A stretch of 30,241 bases of DNA, from positions 1-30,241 of the forward strand of contig JAFGDV010000006.1 in NCBI GenBank assembly GCA_016931955.1, in the 5' to 3' direction. The position numbers were made by a program, and so were the translations under genes. Positions 1 to 30,151 of this stretch are shown here, piece after piece; the first letter of the stretch is position 1, and each line of letters opens with the position of its first letter. The notes beneath the pieces are model-generated. The model searched no databases. It saw only the letters and a program-made list of their open reading frames with translations, and was not told where the DNA came from. This stretch comes from Candidatus Altiarchaeota archaeon (GTDB taxonomy: Archaea > Altiarchaeota > Altiarchaeia > IMC4 > QMZM01).

Positions 1-129
1 GACCCAGGACATGCCCCATGCCCCGGCCCAATATACGACGGATGCGTAAGAAACAGCGGCACAGGCTACCTAAACTGGGCATGCTGCCACAACATAATAT
101 GCAAAATACAAAAAGAAGTGCACATATGA
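1..129 (+). CDS. C-terminal fragment of a Cys-rich protein (runs off window start)
   Basis: Frame 1 is open from base 1: DPGHAPCPGPIYDGCVRNSGTGYLNWACCHNIICKIQKEVHI, stop TGA at 127-129, 4 nt before the next ATG. Cys-rich like neighbouring genes. Confidence 0.6.
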   Translation, partial: DPGHAPCPGPIYDGCVRNSGTGYLNWACCHNIICKIQKEVHI

Positions 130-133
130 TAGA

Positions 134-436
134 ATGAAAAAAGAGTCCCTCCTGTTCTTGGTGATTGCGTTCTCGCAGTTAGTTGCTGGAGCGGACATAA
201 TACCCTTCGGGTTGAAGGAGGCCTCGATAGAGGAATGGATCAACCTCTTCTATGCGATGACTGTCGCAGTCGCAGTATTGATGATGATATTCCACGGCAT
301 CAAATGGATCACAGCAGACAACGACGAAGACAGAAAACAGGCGAAGGCTGGAATCAAAAACGTCTTCTTGGGCTTGGTTTTTATACTTTTAGCTGCTGCA
401 TTGGTTGACATGGCATATACCAAGCCAAGCTACTAG
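134..436 (+). CDS. VirB2/TrbC-like (T4SS-type) pilin
   Basis: Signal peptide, then two hydrophobic helices joined by the loop GIKWITADNDEDRKQAKAGIKNVFLGLVFILLA, the pattern of TrbC/VirB2-type pilins. Confidence 0.8.
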   Translation: MKKESLLFLVIAFSQLVAGADIIPFGLKEASIEEWINLFYAMTVAVAVLMMIFHGIKWITADNDEDRKQAKAGIKNVFLGLVFILLAAALVDMAYTKPSY

Positions 437-987
437 ATGGGGCAGGAAACCTCTCCAACGTAGAGATAATTCACGAGAGCGAAGGAGATGATTACAAGAG
501 CCAAACCTACTAAGACATAATATACTCCCTTCTTTGCGTCATCCCGTCCCTGAAAGTCATCAGCAGTCATCCACTTGAGTCCGTTCACCATCAAGGAGAG
601 AACCGCCAACCCAGCCGCGATGGACTCAAGAATCAGGATGATCTCACAAAACTCCTTATTTGCGGCACAGTTTCCAGCGCAGGATTTTACACAGGCATCG
701 AACTCGTCTGAGCCAGATGTATACTTGCTGCATGTGCCAGCTGAGCAGCAGCTTTCACAGTCGCCTACGATGCAACCTGTCATGGAGCCGCATTCTGCCG
801 CGCATATTACTGGACAGTTGCCTCCAGAAGCTGTGTTGCACATGACCGTGGGCTCGCTTCCATCCTTGCAATTGTTGCCGTCACCTGCAGTGCATTTATA
901 TGATTCAAAGGTGGAATCAGCGTATCCAATCAATGTGATAGCTATTAGGATAATGAATGCTTTTCTTGCATTGGGTTTCATTTTCAC
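433..987 (-). CDS. Secreted Cys-rich domain fused to C-terminal VirB2/TrbC-like pilin hairpin
   Basis: Signal peptide; Cys-rich middle; hairpin GLKWMTADDFQGRDDAKKGVYYVLVGLALVII. Alternative ATG start at 981. Confidence 0.75.
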   Translation of the reverse strand: MKMKPNARKAFIILIAITLIGYADSTFESYKCTAGDGNNCKDGSEPTVMCNTASGGNCPVICAAECGSMTGCIVGDCESCCSAGTCSKYTSGSDEFDACVKSCAGNCAANKEFCEIILILESIAAGLAVLSLMVNGLKWMTADDFQGRDDAKKGVYYVLVGLALVIISFALVNYLYVGEVSCPI

Positions 988-1017
988 TTAATTAATTTGT
1001 TTTGTTTGACTTAATAA

Positions 1018-2214
1018 TCAGCATGTGAACGACCCTGTAAAGAAGTAATTAGCTAATGATGCCGCTGTTATGATCAGTATCAAACCGACGAAGACGTATG
1101 CTATGCCCCTTTTCGCATCCTGTCGGCCCTCTATGTCATCAGACAGCATCCACTTCATGCCATGAAACATGATAAGCAAGATGGAAATGCCGGCAGCCAC
1201 TCCGTAGATGATGTAGAGGACGTTGCATAATTCCTCGTTGGCTCTGCAGACTCCCATGCAGTTTTCCATGCATACTTTTTTTTCTTCATTCCCGTAGGCG
1301 TACATTGAGACCTTATTACACCACAAGGGGCTATTGCAGCAGTTCTCACAGTCTGTACTGCATGTTGCCTCCCTGCCGCACTTAGAAGCGCATTGATACT
1401 TGCAGTCTACTGTGTTGCTGCATTTGACCTCAGGCTCCGCCCCATTTGAGCACTTGTAGTGCAACCCCATGCAGATGAAGTCGTCGTAAACGCAGGCTGC
1501 TGGAGGCCCCGCGTCGCATTTCATGGCGCATGCCTCCACAAGTGTGCACGAGCACTCTGCAGCTGATTCATCGTATTTGCATTCAACCAGGCAGGGCACG
1601 TTAGGATTGACTTGGATGCTGTCATCACACGTTAGACCCCCGTATGTCTGCCCGTACTCTAAACACGCTATGCCCTCGTATTCGCCGCAGCATCCTGGCG
1701 GAGTCACGAATAGGTGGGGATCGATACCTCCAAAGGGGCAAACATTTGTTGAATCTAGTGGGTCGTTAGAAAATCCAAGCTCGCATTCAAGGGATTCCAT
1801 TAGGGGGTTAGGGTTAGGTAAGGCGCCGATGATCGTGACTTTCGCCTCCCCTTTACCTGGGGGAGGGGGATTCTCGAGGCTGCACGCATCCCAGAGGCTC
1901 GGGACACTCGACAGCTTTATGGTTCCAGACTCGCCTGACTCAAGCCTCAACCAAAAGTCATTCGGCGAACGCTCCAATTCAAAATTATCCGCGTCGAATA
2001 GTACGGCTCTGTAGCAGCATTTCTCGGAACCTTCATTCGTAAACTTTACTGAGAATCTTATCTCATCCCCCCAATAGATTTCATGGGTTATCTCGACTTT
2101 GGTTTGGTCGATCTGGCATTTAGTTGGATCACAGCCTGCGTATGCGCTCTCAGCCAGAAAGATCGCCAAGAGGAGTACTGTAACCGCCTTGCTCAGGGAT
2201 TCCATCTTTAACAT
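1018..2214 (-). CDS. Signal peptide + Ig/CARDB-like segment + Cys-rich domain + VirB2/TrbC-like pilin hairpin
   Basis: Signal ends AESAYA; beta-rich GDEIRFSVKFTNEG...LESGESGTIKL; hairpin GMKWMLSDDIEGRQDAKRGIAYVFVGLILII. Confidence 0.75.
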   Translation of the reverse strand: MLKMESLSKAVTVLLLAIFLAESAYAGCDPTKCQIDQTKVEITHEIYWGDEIRFSVKFTNEGSEKCCYRAVLFDADNFELERSPNDFWLRLESGESGTIKLSSVPSLWDACSLENPPPPGKGEAKVTIIGALPNPNPLMESLECELGFSNDPLDSTNVCPFGGIDPHLFVTPPGCCGEYEGIACLEYGQTYGGLTCDDSIQVNPNVPCLVECKYDESAAECSCTLVEACAMKCDAGPPAACVYDDFICMGLHYKCSNGAEPEVKCSNTVDCKYQCASKCGREATCSTDCENCCNSPLWCNKVSMYAYGNEEKKVCMENCMGVCRANEELCNVLYIIYGVAAGISILLIMFHGMKWMLSDDIEGRQDAKRGIAYVFVGLILIITAASLANYFFTGSFTC

Positions 2215-2906
2215 ATTATGGTGTGGAGGAATATTAGTTCTACCAGCGTTGACGCAACGACTATGAGGATAAAGCCAGCAAGCACGTATTCCACTCCCTT
2301 TCTCGCATCCCTCCTCGCCTCAAGGTCTTCGCTGGTGATCCACCTGAATCCATGCAGTATCAGCATTATTATGCCTGCGAACATTGCCCCGTAACGCAGT
2401 AAATCGATGACGTTGCAAAACTGCCTGTTTGACTCGCAGACGCCGTAACAGGTGTGATAACACGCCTCCTCCGTCTTACTGCCTGCAGCATATATGCTGC
2501 ATACATCGGTTGCAGTGCACTGCTCGCAGTTATCTGTTAGCAGCGTCTTCCGGCCGCAGGCTGCTGCACACTCAAGCATGCAATCAGAGGAATCCGGTTC
2601 ACTCACCAACTTGGCAACGGAACACCTCACAGACGGTGTGCTGCCGTCCTTGCACATGTAGCTGCCGAAAGTCGCATAGGTTGTGCACATAAAGGGCCCA
2701 AAAGTGCAGTAGGCCCCGCCTGTTGGTCCGGGATATATCTCGCATCCGACCGCACAGTATTCTAGTATGGTAGTATCTGTGTCATCGACGACACATGCAT
2801 TGCTGGGGCTGCCGAAACACGGATCGCGACATTTCGTAGCAGAGACTGCTGAGTTCATGGATATGAAGAGGATGAAAGCCGCTAATATCCATGATTTATC
2901 ATTCAT
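2208..2906 (-). CDS. Secreted Cys-rich domain fused to VirB2/TrbC-like pilin hairpin
   Basis: Signal ends SAVSA; Cys-rich; hairpin GFRWITSEDLEARRDARKGVEYVLAGFILIVVA. Stop overlaps the next gene's start region. Confidence 0.75.
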   Translation of the reverse strand: MNDKSWILAAFILFISMNSAVSATKCRDPCFGSPSNACVVDDTDTTILEYCAVGCEIYPGPTGGAYCTFGPFMCTTYATFGSYMCKDGSTPSVRCSVAKLVSEPDSSDCMLECAAACGRKTLLTDNCEQCTATDVCSIYAAGSKTEEACYHTCYGVCESNRQFCNVIDLLRYGAMFAGIIMLILHGFRWITSEDLEARRDARKGVEYVLAGFILIVVASTLVELIFLHTIIC

Positions 2907-2988: not shown

Positions 2989-5900
2989 ATGGTGAAAAAA
3001 TCCAGAGACCATAGGTTTATTCTCCTCATCTCTGTCATCCTCATACTGACAGTGCAAGCCAACTCCCAAAGCCCCCCCAGCTGTACTATGACATTGTCGG
3101 TAAGATTCGATCCTATTGATCCAGGCGAAGACAACGAGTTTAGTGTGCAATTAAATCCAGTCCCTGTATGCCGGGATAAGCCTGTGAGATTAGAGGTCAT
3201 CGATCCCAACGGGGTCAGACATCAATACTATGGAATCACCGACATTAGCGCCCGCATACCGCCGGCTGGTTACCTGAGTTACCTGAAGCAATTCGATAAC
3301 ATGCCTAACACGGATGTGAGCGGCAGATACTATGTGATCGCGACCCTATACACGGGTGACTGGGTTCAAGACGACTTCGCCGTTAACGTAATCTGCGATG
3401 AACAAGCGAAGGACGGTGGGGGCACATTGATAGCTGAACGCCAGATCACCATAGGCAGCATCCCAGAGACCGTGGCCTCAGATATCGTCGCATGCACCGA
3501 CCTGAATGCTAACTGTGGCTACCTTGACCTGGTCTTGGATAAGGACTGCGCTCAAACCGGCGGCAGCTTTCCAGGCGCAGATCTTAACGTAGGAACTACC
3601 GAGCCAAGCTCAACAGACCACATAACTATCTGCACTAAACCGCTCCCCTCCTCCGAGCTGGAGTACACCTCAATAGACGGCAACAAGTACACGCTCATCG
3701 GCATGGCTGCTGAAGACTCTGACTCGACCCATTACTGGATGGCTAAGACCGGAGACGATGAATGCATAATGGGGGACGTCACAAGATGCGAGTTGCTCAC
3801 TAAGAGGCTTTTCATAGACGAACCACTTTACAGGGACTACATAAGAGACACAGTAAACGGCTTGGCATATGTTAACCCCCCCTGTTCGGGCTTCTATGAG
3901 GCCGCAGTGGGCTGGCTGTATGACATCGACACCCCAAGGTACCACGACATCTTCGGGGATTTGACTGATTTCCTCTACTGCCATCAGTCCCCCTTGCCGT
4001 CATTTAAACTCATAAAAGAGTCGCAGTGGTGTCATCTGATAAACCTGGGATGGTATTCCGTCGTCAACCTGACCAACAAGGAGGGTGTCACAAACATCGT
4101 CAACGACAGCATAACAGCTGAGAACCGATGGAATAATCTCTCAGGCTACATCGTCTTAGGGCATGCATGCCCCATCTGGCGGGATGTTGATAATTTACCC
4201 GCAGGCCTCCAAACCTTTGACGCTACCGCTGGGGGTTACAATGTTCCATGCCAGCTTCCTGACAGCGAACCTTTTACGCCCCCGTGTTCGGCATCAATCC
4301 CCAACCAATGCATCTACGTGTGGACGTCCTCTTATGCGTGGGATGGATTGTTTGGGTACGAGAAAAGCTTTGATTACACGTTGACTAATGCGGCTGAGGT
4401 GGAGGTATTGATGGCTGACAGCAACACAGACACCCAGATCCCCGCCTTTGATGTGATAAAGGAGGAGGTGGAGTCTATAAGGTCGCGGGTGACGGTGACG
4501 CCTAATATGGTCGCATCAGACTGTGGCGCTGTAGCCCCCATAACTGATGTCTTTTATTATGATAATCCGCTCCTCCCAGGATACCGTTCCTGCGATGACC
4601 ACAAACTAGGTTACTATAGATTGTTCGACCAGGATACTGTGTGGACTAAGATCTTCGCCGTGACGCCGATGCTCGAAGACGAGCACTGGGCGTGGGACTG
4701 GGATTGGAGCAAGGCAAGCGGACCAGATGTTGACTCCACCATCTCAATATACATTGGAGGAGGCTGCAAGAGGACCAGCGCATTCTACTTCAACTATCCT
4801 GGAGCAAAATCTAAGTACTTCGACTCAGCCAGCGGCACCAATACGCCTATCGTAGACTACGTGGATGTCACAGTAGACGACGGAGTTAATCCACCAAAAA
4901 TCTACAGTCATGTACCTGGGAGGAATCTGCTGCCTTTCCCGCCTGCGGATGCTGTAGAAGATGAAATCACCGGGCTTCCCATACCGGCACGCACCCACCC
5001 ATATGAGGGCATAAGGTATTCCTTCTTCAAAATAGACCATGTTCTGCCGGAGGATGCCGCCTACCTCAAGATAGACGTGGAATACACGTGCGAGACTAAA
5101 CTGGAGCGGACTCAATCACCAGTCTGCGGAGGAGGCACTGAGACAATAGAGGACGAAAGCATCGTCTCAGACAGCTACACCATAAAGTTCCTCGACCACG
5201 ATAATCCAAGAGAGAACTGCAGATGGAACAATCCCCTGGAGTGGATGGTGATTGAAGGTACTTGGCAGGGAAGTTTAACACCTGAGCATCCCGGGAGGTT
5301 CTGGGACGCCGACCTCGAGAAGAACATATTCCACCTAGAGGAGGATTCTACTCAAAACAGGCGGATGGTCTCAGTGGAAGAGGTAGAGGAAGAAGGCAAG
5401 ATAATAGAGGCGTTGGTCAGGGGCGAGGCTTCAGGTGATCAAGCTGATATGATGGTTGGATTCTACAGCGACGCTGCCGCAAATAACTATTGGTACGTTG
5501 ACATAGCCCGAGACGGCGGTGTAGGCGGTCAGAGCATAGTAATAGGCAGATATGAAGCGCCGTCGAGCTGGCAAGATAAGGAGTATGAAATTTCCCCTGT
5601 TCAGCCCCCGGATGAGGAGAAATGGTATTGGGTCAAGGTCTTCCTTGACGGGGATGACATATATGCGAAGGCTTGGCTCTGCGATCCCCCGGATCCCTGG
5701 GAGTGCAGTAAAGATGAGCCAGCAGGCTGGATGATACAATACGAGATGCAGGCAGGTGACACTAAGTATGGCCACCACTGGGTTATCGGTACCGACATAG
5801 GGGATACTGGCGATGAGGAATTCTGGTTTGACACCGAACCCATGTGCGGGATAGACATCAGCGGCTACTTTACGCCACATGATACACCCTTAGGTTACGC

Positions 5901-8253: not shown

Positions 8254-8688
8254 ATGTCGAAGAAAAGGCTTAAATCTGCTGTAGACAATATGGAGGTTTT
8301 TGACGCTGAAAACTATCTCATCTTATCCGTCAACCCAAGGATCTATAGCCTTGATGTCGTCTATTATGCCGCCTACGTCTTATTGGATAGGGCGTATGTC
8401 ATACTTGGAGGAGACCCGAAGAAAAAGATCCTGGTAGAATTGAGACCGAAGGATAACACAGACCTGAAAAGCTTGGGCAGGGAATTCAACAACGAGTTGT
8501 TGAATTACGCAGTGTACCTGAAACAATCAGCGAAAAATCAAAAGCTGAAGGAGGCTATCCTACAGAGGGTTTTGATGACCAATCTCGCTCCTGTGGAAGG
8601 CTGTGAACCGAATGAACTACTAGGGGATCCTGGAGGAATCACCAAACCCTGGGGGAGAGAGCATGGCAGGAAAAAGAAAAAAGGTTAG
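8254..8688 (+). CDS. hxsD: His-Xaa-Ser system protein HxsD-like
   Basis: VNPRIYSLDVVYYAAYVLLDRAYVIL...GREFNNELLNY resembles HxsD; directly upstream of an HxsB-like rSAM. Confidence 0.75.
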   Translation: MSKKRLKSAVDNMEVFDAENYLILSVNPRIYSLDVVYYAAYVLLDRAYVILGGDPKKKILVELRPKDNTDLKSLGREFNNELLNYAVYLKQSAKNQKLKEAILQRVLMTNLAPVEGCEPNELLGDPGGITKPWGREHGRKKKKG

Positions 8689-8926: not shown

Positions 8927-8932
8927 TTTAAG

Positions 8933-10357: not shown

Positions 10358-10396
10358 ATTTACATATATGTTTTTATGTCAGTAACCCAATAACTT
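10358..10396 (+). promoter_or_regulatory. Probable dedicated TATA promoter for the precursor gene
   Basis: TTTACATATATGTTTTTATG lies about 20-38 nt upstream of ATG 10397. Confidence 0.4.
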
Positions 10397-18368: not shown

Positions 18369-21300
18369 ATGAAAAAAACTCTGTTACTCTTAAGTTCATT
18401 TTTATTGATTCTTCTAGTTCTAAATACGGTTAACGCAGCAGATACTGATGGAGATGGAGTTCCTGACGCCTCAGATAATTGCCCCAGTGATCCAAACCCT
18501 GGACAGGACGACCTCGATGAAGACGACGTTGGGGATGTATGCGACTGCGATGCTGACGGTGACGGAGTTGACGCTGATGAGCCTATCAAAGGCTGTTTCG
18601 GTACAGACTGTAACGATTTTAATAAAGATGTTGTTTCAAAGATAACCTGTTATGTGGACTGCGACGACGACAACTTCGGAGACCCAGCAGTATCAACGAC
18701 TCAATGTAAACAATGGTGCACGCAGATTATACTGCCAATAATATGCCTTAATAACGACTGGGTGCCTAATGACGATGACTGCGATGATGATCCTTTAGCA
18801 TGCGGCGCATACTGCTACCCAGGAGGTACAGAGGATACGTGTAACGACTGGGATGAGAACTGTAACGGGATGGCTGATGACGACCCCCCAGACGGCGACG
18901 GAGACGGGCATACAATCTGCGATGGAGACTGCAATGACGGCGACGGCACTGTCTGGGATACGATAGACTGTTACCCGGACTGTGACGGAGACCATCAAGG
19001 AAATCAATTTAGTCCAGCAACGACCGCATGTGTGCTAAAATGCTCTGATCTACCACTTACATGCAACGGATTTGTTTACGTAGACAATAAACTGGACTGC
19101 GACGACTCCAACGGAAACACCTTCTTCAACGCGCCGGAGTCATGTGACGGCATAGACAACAACTGCCCAAATGATGGGGGATATGGGCTATGCGATGAAG
19201 GCTGCGACGATGACGACGATGACTACTGCGACTGGACAACGACTTTTGTCGCCCACGCTCTGAACGCCTGTGGACTAGGCACCTGTCCTGGGGGAAATGA
19301 TAACCTTTGCCGATGCAACAAAGCAGGCGACTGCAAAGATAATGATAATAAGGTATTCCCCCAGGCCATAGCCTCTGAAGGCGATACAGCCTACTGCGGA
19401 GTTGATAGTGACGGCGACGGCATTCTCGACTGCTGTGATGGAATAGACAACGACTGCGACGGTAGAACCGATGAAGGCTGCCCCATGCCGTATCCAAGCC
19501 TCCAGGTCAACAATAGTCTAAATGTTGTGATTATTCCTTATCAGGCAATGCAGTGGTGTGATCTGAGCTACTGGAGTGGTTCGGCGATGGTTACAAAATG
19601 TTACTACCATATTGGAGGAGACGCCGACTTCAAGGACGCAGGCGACTACAAGGTAGCGATAGACTGGGATGTTGAGCCTGTTTATAAAACAGGGAGCTTT
19701 ATTGTCACAATAAACCATGACACACAACAACAATCCTGCGATTGCTTTTATCCCGACGACTGCATGGGACTGTCGTGCTGGCTTCCCGGTTCTGCTCTCA
19801 ACCCTGACTGGAACATGCCAGGCCTGGAAAAATTCTGCTGCGGCGACGACGAAAACGAAATCTATGTTGGAGGCACGGACGGAACATTCGCCTGCTGCGA
19901 CAACAAGAAGGAAGATGGGATAACAAGTCTCGGCGGAGAAGAGTGCGTGATTCATGGAGAATGCCAGAATCGGTTGGTCGGCCCCAACGAGGACGGCAGC
20001 CCCGGACTCTGCAACACTGTAGACGACGACTGCGATGGGATAGTGGACGAAAACTGCATGTGTGATTCCTCCAAGACCAACTGCGACCAAGACCTCGACT
20101 GCCCAACCTACCTGTGCAACGACACCTACGGCAACACTAAATCCTGCTGGAAGGTCGGCGGAGACGCCGACCCAGTGGGGGCGAATGCGTGCTGCGGGAG
20201 TATGACTTCTTCACCTGGATTTCCAAATACGCCGGGAGAGTACTATATCTGGAATCCATGCGATGGAAGCGACGCCTGCTGCGATCAAGCGGGAGAGTGC
20301 GTCCTCGGAGGCGTCTGCATGGGCTTCGTAAAGGTTCCCGGCCCCGAGCCCGCATGCGACTTCATAGACAACGACTGCGACTGCTTGGTGGATGAAGACT
20401 TCGACGTAGACGGGGACGGTTTCCCCTCATGCGCCGGAGACTGCGATGACTTTGATATTCATAGATTCCCCGGCAACCCAGAGATATGCGGCGACGGCAT
20501 AGACCAGGACTGCGATGGAATAGACCCAATATGCGGCAGCCCCGATGAGATAACCCTCGGAAACCTGTGCAGGCTCGTCTACGACACAAGCTACCTACTT
20601 GTCTATATCGCCGCCGCGATAACGGTGCTGTTGCTGGTCATCGGAGGCTTAACGCTCATCGGCTCAGAGGACGTTGAAGCCGCCGCCAAGGCGAAGAGCA
20701 ACATAAAGAACACCGTAATCGGCTTAATCATCGTCTTCGCTTTGCTTGGAGCAGGACACATGCTGGAGCCAGAATGCGTCTACCTGCCGGGGACAGGCTA
20801 CCAGCCGCCCTTCTATTACGGCGAACCCCCGCCTCTGTCGGTGGTTATCTCAACACCAACGGATATGCAATTCTTCGCTCCATCTGAGCTCGTAACATAC
20901 AACGCCGTCATATCCGGTGGCTCGCCCCCCTACGTGTACGTCTGGGACTTCGGAGACGAATCACCGACTGTGTGGGGCAGCATCACCACCTCGGGACCGT
21001 GCGGCGGGGAAACATACAAATACGACGTCAAAGGCAAGGGGAGATACACTGTAAGGATTACAGTCACGGACAGCGCGGGCAGAAAAGCCTGGGATGAGGT
21101 GGACGTCTTAATCGACATGGTGCTTGCTGAAATAGATAAGCCGCCTAACGGATTCATCGGAATCGTGGATGAACCAGTTGACTTCGAGGCGTCAATCTAC
21201 GGAGGAGAACTGCCGTATGCCGCTTGGTCATATGGTTGGTATACCGACGCCGGTGCTTTCCCTGGTGGCACCCTTGAGGACCTGCCTGGTTGGAGCGGTT

Positions 21301-21890
21301 TTCCAGTAAATACCGTAGGCGACTACGTGGTCACTTTTGCTGTCACGGATGCTGGGGGACGGACTTCCTCGGACAGCATCCTGATGAAGATAGTAAGCAA
21401 CGTCCCGAAGATAAAAACTGATTACGCCGATGCTAATTTCGGCTATGACACCATCGCTAGCTGCTGGAAGGCGCTTTGGCTGGCTGAGGACGAGACCATA
21501 ATAAAGTTCAAGGTAGAACCAGTCAACAACCCTTTCAATAATCTGAAAGTCGACGCGAAGGTCGTGGAGACAGGAGACTGTAAGTGGCTCAAGTGCTGTA
21601 AAGCATTTGACAACGAGTTCTACACTTCAACCTTAGGTCCTGTGCCACTTGGTAGTGACAAAGAATTCATTTTTAATAACTTCTGCGTTAGGGTCAAGAA
21701 GCTGGAGATACTGATTGACGGCGACTATTCAGTTGGCGGGGATGAGTGGACGTTCTGCGCCTGCTGCGACGCCGAGAATCCCTCTGATAGATGCCCCGGC
21801 AACTACGACGATGTGCCACCACATGATTTCCATGAATGCAAGGTAGTGCTTGGACGTTGCTCTAACACGGACTGTAGTGCGATACCATAA
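18369..21890 (+). CDS. Asp/Cys-rich surface adhesin: TSP3-like and metal-binding repeats, internal VirB2-like hairpin, PKD-like domains
   Basis: Signal ends VNA; DTDGDGVPDASDNCP..PNPGQ (thrombospondin type 3-like); multiple DC[ND]D...P...E-x-C-x-GID-x-DCDG repeats; hairpin at about 20568-20777; SGGSPPYVYVWDFGD and GRYTVRITVTDSAG (PKD-like). Confidence 0.8.
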   Translation: MKKTLLLLSSFLLILLVLNTVNAADTDGDGVPDASDNCPSDPNPGQDDLDEDDVGDVCDCDADGDGVDADEPIKGCFGTDCNDFNKDVVSKITCYVDCDDDNFGDPAVSTTQCKQWCTQIILPIICLNNDWVPNDDDCDDDPLACGAYCYPGGTEDTCNDWDENCNGMADDDPPDGDGDGHTICDGDCNDGDGTVWDTIDCYPDCDGDHQGNQFSPATTACVLKCSDLPLTCNGFVYVDNKLDCDDSNGNTFFNAPESCDGIDNNCPNDGGYGLCDEGCDDDDDDYCDWTTTFVAHALNACGLGTCPGGNDNLCRCNKAGDCKDNDNKVFPQAIASEGDTAYCGVDSDGDGILDCCDGIDNDCDGRTDEGCPMPYPSLQVNNSLNVVIIPYQAMQWCDLSYWSGSAMVTKCYYHIGGDADFKDAGDYKVAIDWDVEPVYKTGSFIVTINHDTQQQSCDCFYPDDCMGLSCWLPGSALNPDWNMPGLEKFCCGDDENEIYVGGTDGTFACCDNKKEDGITSLGGEECVIHGECQNRLVGPNEDGSPGLCNTVDDDCDGIVDENCMCDSSKTNCDQDLDCPTYLCNDTYGNTKSCWKVGGDADPVGANACCGSMTSSPGFPNTPGEYYIWNPCDGSDACCDQAGECVLGGVCMGFVKVPGPEPACDFIDNDCDCLVDEDFDVDGDGFPSCAGDCDDFDIHRFPGNPEICGDGIDQDCDGIDPICGSPDEITLGNLCRLVYDTSYLLVYIAAAITVLLLVIGGLTLIGSEDVEAAAKAKSNIKNTVIGLIIVFALLGAGHMLEPECVYLPGTGYQPPFYYGEPPPLSVVISTPTDMQFFAPSELVTYNAVISGGSPPYVYVWDFGDESPTVWGSITTSGPCGGETYKYDVKGKGRYTVRITVTDSAGRKAWDEVDVLIDMVLAEIDKPPNGFIGIVDEPVDFEASIYGGELPYAAWSYGWYTDAGAFPGGTLEDLPGWSGFPVNTVGDYVVTFAVTDAGGRTSSDSILMKIVSNVPKIKTDYADANFGYDTIASCWKALWLAEDETIIKFKVEPVNNPFNNLKVDAKVVETGDCKWLKCCKAFDNEFYTSTLGPVPLGSDKEFIFNNFCVRVKKLEILIDGDYSVGGDEWTFCACCDAENPSDRCPGNYDDVPPHDFHECKVVLGRCSNTDCSAIP

Positions 21891-21985: not shown

Positions 21986-23029
21986 ATGGAATCCAGTAAA
22001 ACAAAGATTGCAGCGATAGCGTTGATTGTTTTTTTGCTTAGCTGTATTGCTCTCCCACAGGAGGAAGACCCCGGCTCAAGCGGCTTGATACTAAGCAAAC
22101 TATTGCAGATACCTGAGCATTTCTTTCTCTATGTGGTGGAGGAGATACTCAAGGCTACCATGAATGCCGTGGTGGATCTCTTGAAGACGATGATCCTCTG
22201 GAATCCTAACCCAGACGATATTAAACCCATGGTAGATGACTTCATAGAGATTCTCATCCCAGTTTATGTGATAATAATCATCGTCTTGGGGATCTACATA
22301 ATCTTTGTATCGATTTCGCCTTCGGGGAGGGCTAAGGCTAAGAGCATGTTCTGGAAGACACTATTGAGTATGATGTTGGTCTCCATATCGCTGGAGATAT
22401 TCAAGATACTCTTAGCCATCTCCGACGCCCTAAGTAACAGGATGCTTGCAGGGGTCGTGACGACGAGGCTCCCCCAGTTTATGATGACGATGGCTATGAA
22501 TCCACACAATCTCTTCTTCCTCTACTTGAATCTCGTCTTCTTCCTCCTGTCGGCGCTTATTGTCATAGCGCTCAGATACATCCTTGTTTTGACGCTCTGC
22601 GCCCTGTTCCCTTTCACGCTGTTCCTGTATTTCTTCGAGTTCACGAAAGAGATAGGCTCCAAACTCCTCAGGTATACATTGATGGCCATATACACTCAGG
22701 TAGTTCAGGCGCTGATGCTGGCTATAACAGTGATATCGATGAATTCATTGAGGACGGGCAGCACCGGCGGAGAGAATATCGTCTACGCGTTCCTCTTCAT
22801 TGCAGGCTCTCTCATGATAGTCTTAGCTCCCTTGATGATGATGGGGATCATGAAGTGGATCGGAGGGGCATTGGCGGGAGCTGGCATGGTCGTCTCGTTC
22901 ATAAACCCCGCACTCGGCGGCATAATGGTGGCTGCTGGCGGGATAGCTGCCGGCATGGGTCCAGGAGCCTTGATCGCTGGTGGAACAGCTACCGGGCTTG
23001 GCTGGGCCTATAGGAAAGGCGGAACATAA
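21986..23029 (+). CDS. VirB6/TrbL-like polytopic membrane protein, paralogue 1
   Basis: GAGGAG RBS; WNP motif; hairpin SPSGRAKAKSMFWK; core RYILVLTLCALFPFTLFLYFF...YTQVVQA; Gly-rich tail. Confidence 0.6.
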   Translation: MESSKTKIAAIALIVFLLSCIALPQEEDPGSSGLILSKLLQIPEHFFLYVVEEILKATMNAVVDLLKTMILWNPNPDDIKPMVDDFIEILIPVYVIIIIVLGIYIIFVSISPSGRAKAKSMFWKTLLSMMLVSISLEIFKILLAISDALSNRMLAGVVTTRLPQFMMTMAMNPHNLFFLYLNLVFFLLSALIVIALRYILVLTLCALFPFTLFLYFFEFTKEIGSKLLRYTLMAIYTQVVQALMLAITVISMNSLRTGSTGGENIVYAFLFIAGSLMIVLAPLMMMGIMKWIGGALAGAGMVVSFINPALGGIMVAAGGIAAGMGPGALIAGGTATGLGWAYRKGGT

Positions 23030-23105
23030 GGAGCATTATCCAAGATCACATCGATGTAGATAACTCACTGGATTGAAAAAAATGCGGAAGCTTGGAGTAT
23101 TTGAT

Positions 23106-26100
23106 ATGAGAGTTCTCGCTGTCGCAATCCTCTTATTGATTATCAGCGGTACCACAGTAGGAGTTCAAGTATGCTCATACGGCAGCGAGACACATGGATG
23201 CACATGGAATCCACTCACGTGGCCGGGCTGCTGGGTTCAGATACTGATGGACATGGGCAACTGCGTCATGATGTTCTTCATCTCCAAGATGGGTGACTTC
23301 ATCTTGATGAACCCTGAGATAAGCGTGTTCGATCCTTTTATCAAAGACATCATCTCCCTTCTGTTCCCAATATACGTGATAGCCATAGCCGTTACCGGAG
23401 TATATGTGATCTTTCTGTCCACTGAACCAGAGCATAGGGCGCGGGCGAAATTGATGCTGATTAGGTTGATAATGGGCATGGCCATGGTAACGGTTTCAAT
23501 GAGCATCTATCAGTTGCTCCTCAACCTCGCTCATGCAATAGCCCAACAAATCCTCGCCAGCCAGGGAGTGACAGCCGGCGGAGGAGGCGGTCTCGCCATA
23601 CTGAGCATCCTGATAGTTGTGAGCGTTGTATTCTTTTACATATCCGCCTGGCTTCTTCCAGTGCTTGCCATAATAGCCCTCATATCCATCGTATTCAGGT
23701 ACTTCATGGTATCCCTTATGGCTGTCCTCTTCCCTTTAACGCTTTTTTTCTACTTCTTCGAGTTCACGAAGGGTATTGGTAGGAACCTGATGAAGTACAC
23801 GATGATGGCTGTCTTCACGCAACCGGTTCAGGCCCTGATGATGGCCATAATGTTGGTCGGCCTCCATAATGTGGAAGCCAGCGGCGGCGGTATTATGGCG
23901 CTCCTTATCGGTTTGGGTGGATTGATCATGATCATCGCCGCCCCATTGTTTATGCTGGGTTTGATGAAGTGGATCGCTGGAACAGTAGCTGGTGCCGGCA
24001 TGATGTTGGCCTTCAAGAGACCTCTTTTTGGCGCTGCACTGGTTATTACTGGCGGAATGGGCACAGGCATGGGCCCAGAAGCCTTCGTAGCGGGTGGCTC
24101 GGCTTGGATCCTAGGTCACCAATACCAGAAACATGGACCAGACAGGGAACACGGAGTATATAATCGCAGAAAGAGTCGCATCAAAAGGGCGACTAAATGG
24201 ATCGCGGGGAGAAAAACCGTCCAGAGGGGTATTAAAGCGTTCAAGAGGACTAGAGCTGGTATGAAGGTAACATCCGGTATGAAGACTCTCAGGTCTAATG
24301 TGGACGCCGCCGGCGACAGCCTCTACAAGTTCAAGACAAAGGTCAAGGCTGGCTGGGTGAGGCATAAGAGAGCGATCGGCTGTTCGATATTCATTCCAGG
24401 CTACTGGATCTACGCTGCCGGCAAAAGCAGGATGGGTGCTTCCATAAAAGCGACCTTAGCGAATAAGAGGTATGCTGCAACCATCACAGCCGTCAAAAAC
24501 GCCACTACTTCAGCGGATGTGATGAACAACGTGCGCGATTTTGGCGGTAAAGACTCCGCAAGGGAACTGGAGAGCACACTCCCCAACAAGGATAAATTAG
24601 TCAAAGACATCGCAGACGCTATTGAAGCCACCGTACAGGCTCGGGGGGGTAGAGCGCCACGCTCATACTATGAGGCCCAAGCGAGGGGTATCGTTAATGG
24701 ATACATGGATACCCTCGACGCCAGGATTATTAGGGATGAGCTTAGGGCGGTGGGCGTGGACAGGAACACTATAGGCTCGATCTTTAAGGGTAACCGTCCA
24801 GTGAACCTGAATCAATTCAAGAGGGATGCTGAGTGGGTCACAGGGAGGGATAAGGCTGTGAAATACGACATCAAGGCGGCGAAGACCTTCAAGGAACTTG
24901 AAGAGATAAATGAAAAATACGGTATCTGGAAGGATAAAGAGTTAGAAGAGATAAGAGAAAAAGCAGCTAAAGGACAGAAAAAGTTGGACTCTGAGGAGAC
25001 AGTCAAGGAAAGAAGAGAAAAAGCAGCTAAAGGAAAGAGAAAGTTGGACTTTAAGGAGACAGTCGAGGAAAGCAGGGAATATGCATTAGAGCATGTGGAA
25101 GAAGAAGTTAGAAGGCAAGTAGAGGATAAGTTCTGCATGTCGGAGAAGGAATTAGACAAAAAAGCTGAGAAGTTGATGAAGGATCACGGAATCACCAAGG
25201 ATGAGGCAAAGGCACATGTAATGAATGAGTTCAATGAAACAGTTGAAAAGAACGTTGAGGAACTGATGAAAAAACCCGAGATGAGGGAGAGGGTGGAGGA
25301 GGAATTCCTGAAATGCATGAAGAAATTGCCGGAGTATCAGGAAGTGGAGAGGTATGTGGAACGTGAGTTGCGCAGGAGCCGGAGGCTGCCTCCTAATGCG
25401 TCCGAAGCAGACGTGAGGAAGGCCGTGGACGCCGAGATGACGAAGATGCTGGATAAGGAGTTGGATGTGATAAAACAAGAAAAAACAGTCGCCGCACAGA
25501 GGGGTATGAGTGGGGGTGATGCTGAGAAGTTCAGACTAAGGGACAAACACGGTGAACTTCGTAAGGCCTTTGACGGCTCCATCGAGGATCTGCCGCTAAG
25601 CATAGACAACCGAAGGGAGGTGATTATGACCTCCAAAGCGAACATGGCTAAGAAGGCTATTGAAACCGCCGGAACAGCTGACGAGATCAATGCTGTTTTG
25701 AAGAGGAACCGTATTCTGCAAAGTGAGTTGGAGGAATCATGCATGAAGGCCTACGGTGTTTCCAGGGCAGACGCACAGGACCAGATGAGACAGTTCTTAG
25801 ACACCCATAAGAGGAGCGCTGAGTTGGCTTTGGAAAACAGAAGGGATAGTCTACTGAAGCGGGAGGGAGCGATTGATGGGATACGTCGGGGAGTTAAGTT
25901 GATCGGTCTGTCGCTCACACCTGCTGGTTGGATCATAACAGCGAAGATCATCGCCGAGGGCAGGAAACCCTTCGCCAGAGGCCTTCAGCGGACTGGCTTA
26001 GCCGTTAGAACCCGGATGGAAGAATCATACAGGGGGAGGCGGATGCTGTCTAGGTGGGATGCAGGCAAACGCCGTGCCGGGGCGAAGTTGGCAGGGGCGA

Positions 26101-29100
26101 AGATAAAATCCACGAAGATGATGAAGGCGATAAGAACGCGCAGGCTGGAGAAGGGATTATACAAGGAGTTTATGTCTCTGGGAGCTAATAACACGTCAAG
26201 TGCTTGGTTATCGACGCGCTTAACTGATACGTATCGAAGAACAAATGATCTAAGCGGAATTAAAACATCCCTGGAGGGTTGGTATAGGAACAAGTACCCA
26301 AATATGCCAATTGACGAAGTGAACAGGAAAGTATCCGACTTCATCAACAGGTATGACCCGGACCGGGCGAGAGGTTCGGTACTCTCTAAAATGGATACCT
26401 ACTTCTATGAGATAGGTGGTAAGGAGTTGCAAACAGCTCTAGCAAATAGGTTTGAGGTCTTGGATGTTTCTTCCGACCCGAAGAACGCAGCAAGAAACGT
26501 GGTTAAAAAATATCGTGAAACCGGGAATGTGAGCGAAATTGAAGGGGAACTGAGAAAAGCTTACATTAGTAAATACCCGAATATGCCAATTGATGAAGTG
26601 AACAGGAACGTATCCGACTTCATTAAGAGCATTAGCGTAAAGGATACGTATAAGCCCGAGCTTAAGAAGGTGAGTCTCCTCACCGGTGAAAGGGAGGACA
26701 TAAGGAGGACCCGTGCTTGGAAGGCCGCATACCACAGTGGGTTGTCGCTTATAGTACCTTTCTATCCTATCGCTCTGGCTCATGCGGCTATTACAGGAGG
26801 GGAACTACGATCGATAGCGCTTTATTCAGCCGAATGGATGGCGGCGTCGAAGGCATGGAAGAAGTCAAAGGAAGCAAAAGAGAAAACATTTGAATTCTTC
26901 AAGCAAAGCAGGCCGGGTATAGCGATAGGGGAAGCGGCTGAGATATATGCTGAAATAGGCAGGGACGTAGCTGATGCTGGCAGGAGGGGGGTTGCTGCAG
27001 TGGGGAGAGTGCCCAAGGCCGTGAGTACTGGTGTCAGGGAAACGACAACTGAGCGTTTGAAGGAGATGCGCACACGCAGGCTGGAGAAGGAATTAGCCAA
27101 AGAGTTCAAAGGAATGACCAGAGTTAATCCAGATAGATTAGCACACAACTTAGTTGAAGAGTATCGCAGAACAAATGATCTAACAAAAGCTAAAAAAGAG
27201 TTGGGTAGCTGGTATCGGCGATCACACTGGATCCAACATGGAACTCCGATATCGATCTATGAAGCCGATATTAAAGCCGCCAGATTCCTTGGGGTGCATG
27301 ACCCTGAGATAAGGGAGCCTCTTAGGGCCAAATGGAAGGAGGGTCTGGTAAGGAGAGACCTGAACCTTATGGAGAAGGAACTGGCGTCGGAGTTCACGAA
27401 TCGAGGCGTTCCTGATGCAGACAAGATGGCAGGAGAGTTAGTCAAAGACTACGGTAAATCCAACGACCTGTGGCAGATCACCCAGGCATTGAAGAGCCAC
27501 GGCGCCAAAAACAGGATAAGCTACTTCAAGGAGAGATACAGTCCAGAGAAGCTCGGAGAACCATTACATAAGAGGCCGGGCAGCTCATTCAAGCGTACGG
27601 CAGAGAGGATCGCATCAAGGGAGGAAGAAGCCCTAAAGAGCAGGAGGCTTAGTTCGATGAATAGTGGACTGGATGATGAGTTCAATAGATTACAAGTTCC
27701 TGCAACAGACAACTCTGTACAGGAGATCAAAAAATTGGTCGATAACTACGGAACTGATACAACAGACACAAATTTCACCAAGGTCAGAGACAGACTGGTT
27801 GAATTTTACAGGAACAGGGGGAGTTCTTTCGATGATGCTGGGGCGAAGTCTTATGAAATACTCAGAGGCTATAGTCCTGATGATCTCAGTAAGCCTGGTT
27901 TTGTGGATCTCAGGGGTCGGGCTCAGTGGGTCAGAGAGCATCGAAGACAAATTGGGGTCTCGCTTGTTGCGGCACCGGTTTACGCCCCCTATCTAGCCAG
28001 TCGCGGTGTGTATGCTGGACTGAGCCGTGCAAAAACAATGTCGACGCTGAGGGATATAGACAACATAAAGGTCACTGAAGCCTATAGATACAAGAAACTC
28101 CGGGATGCTATGGTGGGCTCTGGTGTCCCCGAGGCGGAAGCCAGGGTGCTTATCGACGACCACATGCATAATAAGAATGAGGAGATCAGGGCCACTCCCC
28201 CGGGCACGCCACGTAAGAGTGACTTAGAGTACCACGATAGCCTCCAGAGGGAGGCGAAGGCTCTTGTGGTGGCTGATAGGACCATGGGTAGCAGATACCG
28301 TAAGCTGACAAAAGAATTCTTTAAGCCCTTCCAGCACAATAAAACACTGGATGAAGTCATTGCAAGGGGGGGATTGTACAGTGAACAAGGTATGGAAGAT
28401 CCTAAACTGATCGATATACGAGACCGTGCTGTAGCCGACATAAACCGCGGAGCAGACCATGAGCAGATTATCTTAAGGGCGAATAGAGAAGTCGATGACC
28501 ACCTAATCGAGTCCGGCAGCTTTAACAAGTATCTGAAGGACAACATCAGGAGAAAATACGGCATACTCGGCAGCGAAATAGACAAAATCAACAGCCACCT
28601 AATGGACAGCAGGAGGGACAAGATCACAGAAGTTAGGAGACAGAGGAGCACGATTGCTGAGCCTCCAGTACACGCGAGGGATAAGGTAAACGCCCAAGTC
28701 CTCGTGGACGCTCACCGATCAGTTCAGGAGATCGCGTCAGTTGAAGCCGTTAATACGATGAAACCCTCAGTGCAAGTACAATGCATCGAATTCTTCGGAG
28801 GGGGAGACAAGGAAGTGAGAGGAGTGCGCCTGCTAACGGAGGCGGAGAAGAGAGACATCATTTTCGGGCTTGACTTGGGCAGCAACCTTCACGCGAGGAT
28901 GCTCCTCGAGGACTACATGGGCATCGGACCCAGACCAAGTGAGTTCTATCACGGAATAGGACCAGAGACCAAAGAGGAGAGAGAGAAGGAAAGGGAGAGA
29001 GAAGAGGGGTCACCCCTATATGCTGCCGCTACAGTGAAGACCGCTGAACTCTTCGGCCAGATATCCGGTGGCATTGAAGAGCTTAAGAAGCCCTCCAAAA

Positions 29101-29120
29101 AAGGAGGGGAGGAAAAATGA
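23106..29120 (+). CDS. Extended VirB6/TrbL-like protein with very long charged, repeat-containing tail, paralogue 2
   Basis: First roughly 340 aa align by eye with the flanking paralogues (MNP, HRARAK, RYFMVSLMAVLFPLTLFFYFF, FTQPVQA, MKWI..GMGP). GGAG at 23094-23097 favours ATG 23106 over TTG 23073. Confidence 0.6.
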   Translation: MRVLAVAILLLIISGTTVGVQVCSYGSETHGCTWNPLTWPGCWVQILMDMGNCVMMFFISKMGDFILMNPEISVFDPFIKDIISLLFPIYVIAIAVTGVYVIFLSTEPEHRARAKLMLIRLIMGMAMVTVSMSIYQLLLNLAHAIAQQILASQGVTAGGGGGLAILSILIVVSVVFFYISAWLLPVLAIIALISIVFRYFMVSLMAVLFPLTLFFYFFEFTKGIGRNLMKYTMMAVFTQPVQALMMAIMLVGLHNVEASGGGIMALLIGLGGLIMIIAAPLFMLGLMKWIAGTVAGAGMMLAFKRPLFGAALVITGGMGTGMGPEAFVAGGSAWILGHQYQKHGPDREHGVYNRRKSRIKRATKWIAGRKTVQRGIKAFKRTRAGMKVTSGMKTLRSNVDAAGDSLYKFKTKVKAGWVRHKRAIGCSIFIPGYWIYAAGKSRMGASIKATLANKRYAATITAVKNATTSADVMNNVRDFGGKDSARELESTLPNKDKLVKDIADAIEATVQARGGRAPRSYYEAQARGIVNGYMDTLDARIIRDELRAVGVDRNTIGSIFKGNRPVNLNQFKRDAEWVTGRDKAVKYDIKAAKTFKELEEINEKYGIWKDKELEEIREKAAKGQKKLDSEETVKERREKAAKGKRKLDFKETVEESREYALEHVEEEVRRQVEDKFCMSEKELDKKAEKLMKDHGITKDEAKAHVMNEFNETVEKNVEELMKKPEMRERVEEEFLKCMKKLPEYQEVERYVERELRRSRRLPPNASEADVRKAVDAEMTKMLDKELDVIKQEKTVAAQRGMSGGDAEKFRLRDKHGELRKAFDGSIEDLPLSIDNRREVIMTSKANMAKKAIETAGTADEINAVLKRNRILQSELEESCMKAYGVSRADAQDQMRQFLDTHKRSAELALENRRDSLLKREGAIDGIRRGVKLIGLSLTPAGWIITAKIIAEGRKPFARGLQRTGLAVRTRMEESYRGRRMLSRWDAGKRRAGAKLAGAKIKSTKMMKAIRTRRLEKGLYKEFMSLGANNTSSAWLSTRLTDTYRRTNDLSGIKTSLEGWYRNKYPNMPIDEVNRKVSDFINRYDPDRARGSVLSKMDTYFYEIGGKELQTALANRFEVLDVSSDPKNAARNVVKKYRETGNVSEIEGELRKAYISKYPNMPIDEVNRNVSDFIKSISVKDTYKPELKKVSLLTGEREDIRRTRAWKAAYHSGLSLIVPFYPIALAHAAITGGELRSIALYSAEWMAASKAWKKSKEAKEKTFEFFKQSRPGIAIGEAAEIYAEIGRDVADAGRRGVAAVGRVPKAVSTGVRETTTERLKEMRTRRLEKELAKEFKGMTRVNPDRLAHNLVEEYRRTNDLTKAKKELGSWYRRSHWIQHGTPISIYEADIKAARFLGVHDPEIREPLRAKWKEGLVRRDLNLMEKELASEFTNRGVPDADKMAGELVKDYGKSNDLWQITQALKSHGAKNRISYFKERYSPEKLGEPLHKRPGSSFKRTAERIASREEEALKSRRLSSMNSGLDDEFNRLQVPATDNSVQEIKKLVDNYGTDTTDTNFTKVRDRLVEFYRNRGSSFDDAGAKSYEILRGYSPDDLSKPGFVDLRGRAQWVREHRRQIGVSLVAAPVYAPYLASRGVYAGLSRAKTMSTLRDIDNIKVTEAYRYKKLRDAMVGSGVPEAEARVLIDDHMHNKNEEIRATPPGTPRKSDLEYHDSLQREAKALVVADRTMGSRYRKLTKEFFKPFQHNKTLDEVIARGGLYSEQGMEDPKLIDIRDRAVADINRGADHEQIILRANREVDDHLIESGSFNKYLKDNIRRKYGILGSEIDKINSHLMDSRRDKITEVRRQRSTIAEPPVHARDKVNAQVLVDAHRSVQEIASVEAVNTMKPSVQVQCIEFFGGGDKEVRGVRLLTEAEKRDIIFGLDLGSNLHARMLLEDYMGIGPRPSEFYHGIGPETKEEREKEREREEGSPLYAAATVKTAELFGQISGGIEELKKPSKKGGEEK
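24953..25072 (+). repeat. 60-bp in-frame tandem duplication
   Basis: REKAAKGQKKLDSEETVKER / REKAAKGKRKLDFKETVEES; nucleotide copies are nearly identical. Confidence 0.9.
26292..26623 (+). repeat. 53-bp near-identical direct repeat, 279-bp period
   Basis: 26292-26344 and 26571-26623, both encoding KYPNMPIDEVNR[KN]VSDFI. Confidence 0.9.
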
Positions 29121-30151
29121 ATAGAAGGCTTAAAGTAATCGCAGCGACTGCATTGATGGTCCTGTTAGGTGCTGGAGAGGCGCTGGCTATCTGCAGATGG
29201 TATCACTGGTTCATTCCAGGCATATGGAACATCTGCATAATAGAAGCAATCATCAAGTGGTTTTTAAGTGGTCTAACTGGATTCGCCAATAACCTTAAAA
29301 AACAGATACTCTGGAATCCGGATCCAACAGCCGTTAACTCCTTTGTCCAAGCCTACCTTGACCTGATGCAGCCGATATTCACTCTATCAATAATTATAGT
29401 TGGCTTCTATCTGGTCTTCATGTCCGGCTCACCTGGGGGCAGGTCGAGGGCTAAGAGCATATTCTGGAAACTTATTCTGGCCATGATACTGACCTCTCTG
29501 TCAACGGAGATCTATGTAACATTGCTCAACATATCTGAGGGGATAAGCTCGAGGGCGATTGCCGGAGTCACTGACGGCTCAATCCATTTCAGTTTTCTAG
29601 AGAATCTTACTTTTGTCGCTGTGAAGATATTACTCAATTTCGTTTTCATACTGACAATGATATCCATTGGCATGAGACACGTGCTGGTGCTGGTAACTGC
29701 CGCATTGTTCCCGCTAACGATATTCCTCTACCTATTCGACCTGCCTTTGATCGGCGCCATGGGCAGGGAAACAGGTGCTAAACTGTTCAGGTGGACCATC
29801 GGCGTGATATTCGCCCAGACAATCCAAGCAATCATGCTCGCTATAACGGTTGTGTCATTCGGCAATGCACAGGAAGCAACTGGTTTAGGTACACTAGCAG
29901 CCGTCTTCGTTGGCATGGCCGGCCTTCTGATGATAGCCTGCGCTCCGTTGATCGCGATGGGGGTCCTGAAGTGGATAGGCGGCGCAATGATGACCCTCGG
30001 CATGGCGTTTTCTCTCACCGGTCATCCCTATTTAGGCTTCGCTGTAACAGCCATGGGCGGATTAATGATGGGTCAAGGCCCTGGCTCGGCCTTGATGGCT
30101 GCAGGGGGGGTTGCTTCGATGACTAAGGCTTTGAGCCTGTTTAAAACATAG
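29117..30151 (+). CDS. VirB6/TrbL-like polytopic membrane protein, paralogue 3
   Basis: ATGA overlap with upstream gene; ILWNP, SPGGRSRAKSIFWK, RHVLVLVTAALFPLTIFLYLF, FAQTIQA, LKWIGG..GQGP. Confidence 0.6.
   Translation: MNRRLKVIAATALMVLLGAGEALAICRWYHWFIPGIWNICIIEAIIKWFLSGLTGFANNLKKQILWNPDPTAVNSFVQAYLDLMQPIFTLSIIIVGFYLVFMSGSPGGRSRAKSIFWKLILAMILTSLSTEIYVTLLNISEGISSRAIAGVTDGSIHFSFLENLTFVAVKILLNFVFILTMISIGMRHVLVLVTAALFPLTIFLYLFDLPLIGAMGRETGAKLFRWTIGVIFAQTIQAIMLAITVVSFGNAQEATGLGTLAAVFVGMAGLLMIACAPLIAMGVLKWIGGAMMTLGMAFSLTGHPYLGFAVTAMGGLMMGQGPGSALMAAGGVASMTKALSLFKT

Follow-up and report, generated by a model that had tools for sequence, protein, structure and literature searches.

What is a conserved cysteine-rich module doing directly in front of a VirB2-like pilin hairpin in three tandem archaeal genes? 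The genes lie near one end of a 30,241-nucleotide stretch of DNA from a Candidatus Altiarchaeota archaeon (assembly GCA_016931955.1, contig JAFGDV010000006.1; hereafter the window), which is the entire contig C36 of genome G000, an assembly of 46 contigs that is 92% complete. C232, B398 and A184 are arranged head to tail, with the C232 open reading frame (ORF) overlapping that of B398 by 7 nt and the A184 ORF starting 30 nt beyond B398, and each opens with a hydrophobic, signal-like N-terminal segment (Table 1). An initial reading of the sequence alone had proposed a disulfide-stapled stalk displaying interchangeable adhesin tips on a VirB2-type filament. Our analysis shows that the cysteine module is a real, undescribed, family-specific domain. 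We interpret the genes, with a probability of roughly 0.5, as encoding passenger-displaying VirB2-like minor subunits of a chromosomal, VirB4-powered apparatus resembling a type IV secretion system (T4SS), in which the module, as a collar, likely holds the passengers outside the cell.

The cysteine module and its hairpin

The motifs C-x-[DN]G-x2-P-x-V-x-C and C-x3-C-x-G-x-C-x2-N-x3-C are found in C232, B398 and A184, and aligning the three proteins, as the sequence-only reading had suggested, revealed 24 invariant columns within the module, in agreement with its description of three tandem genes sharing a cysteine motif before the hairpin. The module comprises ~80 residues and starts one cysteine earlier than first described, at [FY]-x-C; the genome contains only these three copies. 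A profile of the three modules alone, searched against 1.84 billion representative proteins, returned 19 matches, 17 of which were full-length modules, while P0018 and P0019 were rejected as chance repeats. Because a module-only profile retrieved 17 true full-length modules from a collection of this size, the recurrence of the module is not due to chance. These proteins also bear out the proposed preference for pilin hairpins: in 16 of the 17 the module leads directly to a hairpin that carries a terminal cysteine, whereas the C-terminus of the remaining one, P0001, is aberrant.

Genome searches revealed a shorter module subtype that lacks Cys50 and Cys114, and a broadened module-only profile gave 51 matches, located in 21 of the 22 genomes of the window's family (f1), the only f1 genome without the module being G001 (73% complete). 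In the 39 genomes outside this family we found one marginal match, in G039, which was rejected as a stop-ridden 48-aa frame; the profile search therefore confines the module to f1, with no convincing occurrence outside it. A metagenome scan yielded 2 loci only, and no relative was present among 33 pattern matches in viral contigs. In the loci that we fetched, the hairpin follows the module directly in 40 of 46 module rows; four of the other six are cut by the end of the sequence (one of these is a truncated duplicate) and two have a frame stop in or just after the module. No domain other than the hairpin follows the module in any of the 46 rows, and every intact gene has the hairpin next. Since these loci were chosen partly through pilin searches, only the global module-only search and the broadened-profile genome search count as unbiased. 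Module genes at L102/L117 (G016:C13) and at L114 (G013:C18) end in the module or early in the hairpin, through apparent frameshifts or assembly errors.

The sequence-only reading had not recognised the module, and neither did the databases. Pfam assigned 0 families to the A184 module, the best match among 34 members having an E value of 0.12, with metal-binding families equally unmatched; NCBIfam recognised the hairpin alone; the best match among PDB sequences had an E value of 0.63; and the module of the homologue P0028 had no usable match in the ESM Atlas. In the literature we found no account of the module or of an Altiarchaeota T4SS, and no passage on cysteine or VirB in PMC6744442, although the supplementary gene tables of PMC12102498 and PMC4975002 could bear on this. 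The module thus defines a new and tightly delimited domain.

The hairpin itself is recognised by PF18895 in B398 (42.3 bits) and C232 (29.8 bits; cut-off 26.6), with A184 just below at 25.4 bits (E 1.5e-5), and 30 of 31 family members match at E<=0.01. Hydropathy and AlphaFold2 (helices 94-141 and 145-177 in A184) describe a pair of hydrophobic helices with a short charged loop between them, downstream of the signal peptide, and the loop motif W-x4-D-x3-R-x2-A-K-x-G is retained across all hairpin subtypes. The proteins (184, 232 and 398 aa, with relatives of up to 1049 aa) exceed the ~70-100 aa of small pilins. No type IV pilin family was matched, the conserved hydrophobic segment being the C-terminal hairpin and not an N-terminal prepilin helix.

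AlphaFold2 modelled A184, using 31 sequences, with a pLDDT of 88 and with the single helix 94-141 spanning both the module and the first membrane segment. Modelled alone (pLDDT 88.5, pTM 0.80), the module consists of two short strands and three helices, and is predicted to be a compact collar built of a beta-hairpin and three helices, as opposed to an elongated stalk. As its last helix continues unbroken into membrane helix 1, the module would form a rigid pedestal. Foldseek found no match for this model at E<=0.001, and Foldseek and PDB-sequence searches found none for the whole A184 protein. A fold search among 48161 chains returned none with Z>=5; the best VIA-align row, complement C5a (Z 4.9, rmsd 3.9, 60 aligned), belongs to the anaphylatoxin fold (C3a/C5a), likewise a small disulfide-rich helical bundle, with a score that is within background and has no sequence support, i.e., a resemblance only. 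In another family, pilins beside virB4 (L057:14443-15951 in G026, L039 and L056) carry a different, shorter cysteine-rich segment, which ends in C-x2-C-x3-C before the hairpin and is missed by the module profile; it is perhaps a reduced collar.

C232, B398 and A184 contain 20, 34 and 16 cysteines, respectively, and in all three one cysteine marks where the hairpin begins and another sits at the C-terminus or beside it. With the first 24 residues and membrane-segment cysteines removed, 28 of 31 proteins have an even cysteine count. Cys72 is absent from 6 of 34 modules, all of which also lack exactly one of Cys80 and Cys81, while this loss is seen in none of the 28 modules having Cys72; the same joint loss occurs in 5 of 31 modules of another, overlapping alignment. 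Even counts and paired losses therefore indicate disulfides, and the module cysteines likely form them, as had been suggested. Cysteines before helix 1 and after helix 2 also co-occur: of 128 hairpins (144 rows minus 16 that were truncated, masked, unanchored or duplicate, scored in windows set by us), 65 have both, 28 neither, and 12 and 23 a single one (Fisher p 5e-6, with kin and tandem repeats not being independent). It is from this co-occurrence only that we read a staple, likely linking Cys114 and the terminal Cys182 at the two ends of the hairpin in this subtype. A fourth passenger pilin of the same genome (C9:26578-27126, minus strand) has an unrelated cysteine-rich N-terminus and the same hairpin-flanking cysteines.

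Passengers and partner genes

The region between signal peptide and module measures ~5 residues in A184, ~50 in C232 and ~220 in B398. Not every one of these N-terminal regions carries a tip, as A184 has none; B398 and C232 may share a cysteine subdomain, the signal for which is weak (33 of 1000 shuffles; 2 of 200 in a second test). Across the family, the stretch before the module measures 18-813 residues, and as many as 542 aa lie beyond the hairpin. Named passengers were found in 5 of the 27 long proteins scanned: BD-FAE esterase (two proteins), an apiosidase-like domain with InlB-B repeats, Big_2 and PKD; the others have no Pfam family besides the hairpin, except for one sub-threshold match. 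The BD-FAE esterase and apiosidase-like glycoside hydrolase are fused N-terminal to collar and hairpin at L035, L107 (G013, G020) and L113 (G017). The B398 passenger matches no Pfam family, and shows a weak hint of a beta-sandwich through a weak profile match (E 0.043) with a beta-glucosidase, in the C-terminal portion of the latter.

Genome G011, from another genus, has the same C-B-A gene order together with the plain pilin, a 1325-aa neighbour and the A24 peptidase. Identity to the G011 orthologues is 44% (B) and 52% (C) in the N-termini, 60-73% in the modules and 68-75% in the hairpins. In this comparison, of a kind that the sequence-only reading had proposed, the N-termini diverge faster than the cores; for the large surface neighbour the identity is 51%. 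Within the window, the cores of the three paralogues share 33-45% identity, and no long stretch of DNA is repeated among them. On a core tree of 30 proteins (P0001 excluded; strong support for only 3 of 27 branches), N-terminal type requires 5 changes, compared to a minimum of 3 and to 13.8 when shuffled. N-terminal type thus clusters on the core tree, which leaves room for a few old exchanges, for example in P0011, whose B-type N-terminus is followed by another kind of pre-module region. Genuine passenger variety is seen only across long evolutionary distances, where it affects both flanks of the hairpin and extends to enzymes.

In addition, we observed poly-pilins, which are single ORFs of 547-1169 aa with 4 to 11 tandem PF18895-like hairpins, present in tandem gene arrays at L063:7814-11320(-), L053:6059-9244(+) and L048:7959-15368(+) (G014, G021 and G007); nearly every one of their hairpins has one cysteine where helix 1 begins and another after helix 2. 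At L065:8846-12714 (G031), at least 11 small plain pilins form an array, and the majority of them possess the pair of cysteines flanking the hairpin.

We surveyed 61 genomes of the phylum, 49 in the window's order and 12 in other order(s). Within the order, VirB4 is present in 45 of 49 genomes, PF18895 hairpins in 48 of 49 (2-30 matches per genome) and a family of polytopic membrane proteins, which has three members in the window, in 47 of 49; none of the three was found in G022 or in the 12 genomes of the other order(s). Several genomes of family f7 contain a second, more divergent VirB4. The TrwB-type coupling protein PF10412 was found in 0 of 61 genomes at E<=1e-8, a search whose control matched in 3 of 14 and in which other coupling-protein profiles were not included. 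In G011, VirB4 and a gene classed as PrgI/VirB3-like by its form and by weak TrsD/Mbov_0397 matches lie ~8 kb from the orthologues of C232, B398 and A184, and the VirB4 scores 319 bits on the CD1110-type profile NF045971 (cut-off 325) compared to 61 bits on CedB (cut-off 700). A module gene lies within 10 kb of a polytopic-family gene or virB4 in at least 13 of the 21 module-bearing genomes, with a polytopic-family gene nearby in 12 and virB4 in 2, in assemblies that are fragmented; the corresponding distance to a polytopic-family gene in the window is 19 kb. The polytopic proteins contain a pilin-like hairpin, and their role as VirB6-like partners is only inferred, because no VirB6 profile matches them; PF19590 (TrbL_3) matched nowhere, controls included. 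The 2015-aa member in the window (23073-29120) has a long, basic, helical, cytoplasmic-looking extension, like extended VirB6 proteins, which ends in a conserved motif also found in G001 and G003.

Proposed mechanism, alternatives and known relatives

The order seen in the protein sequences is signal peptide, passenger of 5-220 aa, collar and hairpin. Sec export would place passenger and collar outside the cell, and the hairpin would then insert so that the short charged loop lies inside the cell and its two ends lie outside. The collar, predicted to fold as a beta-hairpin and three helices locked by disulfides, would stand as a rigid pedestal on membrane helix 1, and in this subtype the predicted Cys114-Cys182 staple would be a functional analogue of the head-to-tail cyclisation of some conjugative pilins. 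VirB4, the PrgI/VirB3-like protein and the polytopic partners may recruit collar hairpins and plain pilins into a pilus or surface complex with termini pointing outward, and the displayed domains may attach to, or break down, surfaces, particles or partner cells. The paralogues in the window would represent an old, stable set and not a fast-switching cassette. Passenger display on a filament is plausible from the gene context; filament assembly, disulfide pairing and biological role are all putative.

Several results weigh against this interpretation. Bulk may prevent the extraction into a filament of passengers measuring 400-800 aa and of proteins in which as many as 11 hairpins follow in tandem. 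No solved pilin was matched by the hairpin among PDB sequences, and the hairpin fold search returned generic helical hairpins only (Z<=8.8). Neither DsbB nor VKOR was found in any of five genomes searched, and a DsbA-like protein is present in only two of them; two of the five, including that of the window, encode a DsbD/CcdA-type protein. The polytopic family has no VirB6 match in Pfam, NCBIfam or PDB, and a module gene and VirB4 share a contig within 10 kb in only 2 of the 20 genomes that have both. Neither VirB4 nor the PrgI-like gene was found in the window's genome or in G001, the other genome of the genus. A second copy (96%) of the first 117 bases of the window stands at the end of contig C41. 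In the run from which the assembly likely derives, this repeat lies on a 1,104-base contig with a depth of 85.5, compared to 43.8 and 42.1 for its two branches. Beyond the repeat point, G011 continues with further cysteine-rich genes, an 898-aa pilin fusion, VirB4 and the PrgI/VirB3-like gene. Since the assembly breaks at a two-copy repeat, the orthologues of these upstream cysteine-rich genes are also missing from the window's genome, and G001 lacks the 1391-aa neighbour gene as well, an assembly gap at the VirB4 site is likely, though VirB4 may instead have been lost in the genus. Comparison of the G011 virB4 region with two DNA runs (80% likeness; 56% of run X1 read) gave short, low-depth pieces only, and two RNA runs yielded nothing for the locus, hence no evidence on expression.

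The main alternative is that the VirB2-like-derived hairpin now serves only as a two-pass membrane anchor, with collar and passengers being ordinary surface proteins that never enter a filament and VirB4 maybe unneeded. The length of the passengers on either side (813 aa before the module and 542 aa after the hairpin), the entire enzymes among them, the poly-hairpin proteins, the spread of pilin genes over many loci in the single-contig genome G026 and the absence of VirB4 from the G000 and G001 assemblies would all suit an anchor, but hairpin genes are missing from every genome group without a VirB4 system, the loop motif is kept in all subtypes beyond what an anchor would be expected to need, and in at least 12 of 21 genomes collar genes neighbour the cluster of polytopic partners. 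We consider this alternative the less likely of the two, and we think it improbable that the apparatus is a DNA import or exchange system of the Ced/Ted kind, with collar pilins supplying partner recognition. Both Ced and Ted are encoded on archaeal chromosomes and combine VirB2-like pilins with a VirB4-like ATPase (PMC9905601, PMC12102498), and the absence of PF10412 would suit import; however, the G011 VirB4 clearly prefers the CD1110-type profile over CedB, and esterase and glycosidase-like passengers are unexpected in DNA uptake.

Two further alternatives concern parts of the proteins. If the cysteines bound metal (Zn or Fe-S), the module would be a cell-surface metal or redox domain, an option that the CxxC(C) and Cx3Cx3C spacings, the anoxic settings that these organisms inhabit (PMC4975002) and the missing DsbB and VKOR bring to mind, but that we hold to be quite improbable given a module exported behind a signal peptide, cysteines lost in pairs with even totals, no invariant histidine or acidic ligand, and no metal-binding family matched. 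Numerous other exported cysteine-rich ORFs, unrelated to the pilins, are present in the window's genome despite its lack of a detected DsbB or VKOR. The interchangeable adhesin tips of the sequence-only reading would make the genes a cassette of rapidly exchanged tips, varied by recombination for host range or virus evasion. The faster-diverging N-termini, the mixed P0011 and the two tree changes beyond the minimum agree with this, yet the three genes, their order and their orthologous N-termini are kept in another genus, the paralogue cores are dissimilar and share no long DNA repeat, and A184 has no tip at all; we have set this proposal aside as highly improbable.

The nearest known relatives of a display apparatus with VirB2-like minor subunits are the T4SSs of Patescibacteria, where 441 VirB2-like arrays of 2-11 genes have been reported (PMC12102498) and where the Southlakia T4SS with such arrays is essential and lacks a coupling protein or relaxase (PMC10633639, PMC12857230, bioRxiv 10.1101/258137). 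Both systems have PF18895 hairpins in multi-gene arrays, a CD1110/MPF-FATA-like VirB4 and a PrgI-like neighbour, and both are chromosomal, lineage-wide and without a recognisable coupling protein. They differ in the archaeal hosts, in the folded passengers on either side of the hairpin, in the family-specific cysteine collar, in the predicted staple and in the poly-hairpin proteins; the consulted portions of PMC12102498, PMC10633639 and bioRxiv 10.1101/258137 present the Patescibacteria pilins as small proteins, without reference to added domains of this kind. The Ced and Ted pili (CedA1, TedC; PMC9905601) are likewise archaeal and chromosomal with helical-hairpin pilins, and TedC has a predicted cleavable signal peptide (PMC9905601), but these are, as far as the source describes them, single small pilins without passengers in a different phylum, and the VirB4 found here is a weak match to CedB.

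In cyclic pilins such as TrhA of R27 and TrbC of RP4 the hairpin ends are also joined, and in TrhA the joined termini are exposed at the pilus surface (PMC13031515). There, a peptide bond closes the ring and leaves no free terminus, whereas the predicted cysteine pair would permit large N- and C-terminal domains. The Bartonella Trw system also lacks a coupling protein and has several variant VirB2 copies proposed for adhesion (PMC12857230), but these are short sequence variants in a diderm pathogen, in contrast to the added, evolutionarily stable domains seen here. Nanohaloarchaeal giant proteins with VirB4-like domains (PMC10266531) represent a separate DPANN case. The collar pilins thus differ from known T4SS-type systems by an undescribed family-specific domain, while the kind of system is itself known. 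They suggest that VirB2-like hairpins can become a modular surface-display scaffold, and the survey brings to light a T4SS-like gene set that is nearly universal in one Altiarchaeota order, where pilin repertoires are greatly expanded, and that was not found in the 12 other genomes of the phylum.

If the window's order is the Alti-2 clade, as we presume, the system would be a testable candidate for making contact with surfaces or other cells, parallel to the essential T4SS of Patescibacteria. As a tentative wider picture, a supposedly free-living Altiarchaeota order may have vertically inherited a T4SS without a coupling protein, whose filament combines up to 30 different pilin-like subunits and relies on disulfide staples in place of cyclisation, allowing entire adhesins and enzymes (esterases, glycosidase-like domains) as well as 11-hairpin poly-pilins to be displayed, with the family-specific collar as adaptor. 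If true, archaea would possess a Patescibacteria-like contact apparatus, and these cells might live attached to hosts or particles, a lifestyle so far unrecognised. A comparison of Altiarchaeales calls the hami-poor Alti-2 clade free-living (PMC4975002), and the main text of that paper never mentions secretion, pili or conjugation.

Other genes of the window

The features of the window are collected in Table 1. The 100-aa plain pilin is a candidate major subunit, and its G011 orthologue is 65% identical. The 1173-aa protein follows the same display principle as the collar proteins but is module-free. The gene for the 1391-aa exported protein is kept beside pilin genes in G011 and G004.

Table 1. 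Position, strand and main characteristics of features in the window.
Feature	Position	Strand	Characteristics
3' end of Cys-rich gene	1..129	+	Inside two-copy repeat where assembly breaks
Plain pilin, 100 aa	134..436	+	PF18895 52.2 bits; without module or staple cysteines; convergent with A184
A184	433..987	-	184 aa: signal peptide, Cys module, essentially tipless; pilin-like hairpin with Cys114 and Cys182
VirB2-like two-helix hairpin of A184	436..666	-	Charged loop DDxxGRxDAKKG; flanking cysteines of the likely staple
Cys module of A184	667..894	-	Cys32-Cys107; predicted beta-hairpin and three helices, last one continuous with membrane helix 1
B398	1018..2214	-	398 aa: signal peptide, ~220-aa passenger, Cys module, PF18895 hairpin ending Cys398
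Cys module of B398	1246..1473	-	Cys248-Cys323
B398 passenger	1474..2136	-	Likely beta-sandwich, then Cys-rich segments; no Pfam family
C232	2208..2906	-	232 aa: signal peptide, ~50-aa Cys-rich N-terminal region, Cys module, PF18895 hairpin ending Cys232
Cys module of C232	2436..2687	-	Cys74-Cys157; without Cys72/Cys81-equivalent pair
1391-aa exported protein	2989-7164		C-terminal membrane anchor; conserved tail FY/FF-R-x-F-x2-G-x-[LV]-D; no Pfam family
A24 prepilin-peptidase-like gene	7161-8189		Convergent with 1391-aa gene; arrangement kept in G011
His-Xaa-Ser system	8254-10762		HxsD, HxsD-like, radical SAM HxsB (394.9 bits, above cut-off), HxsA3-like 121-aa precursor
1173-aa protein	18369..21890	+	MopE-type Cys repeats, internal PF18895 hairpin between cysteines, PKD domains
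Three polytopic membrane proteins (347, 2015, 344 aa)	21986..30151	+	Family co-distributed with pilins and VirB4

The A24 peptidase gene, at which the stretch conserved in the G011 contig ends, is present although the local pilins are without class III signals. The radical-SAM genes that follow were considered as part of the pilin system and rejected, since they belong to a His-Xaa-Ser system outside the conserved stretch; the motifs of its HxsA3-like precursor are of the HNS/HAN/HGT/HDNS type.

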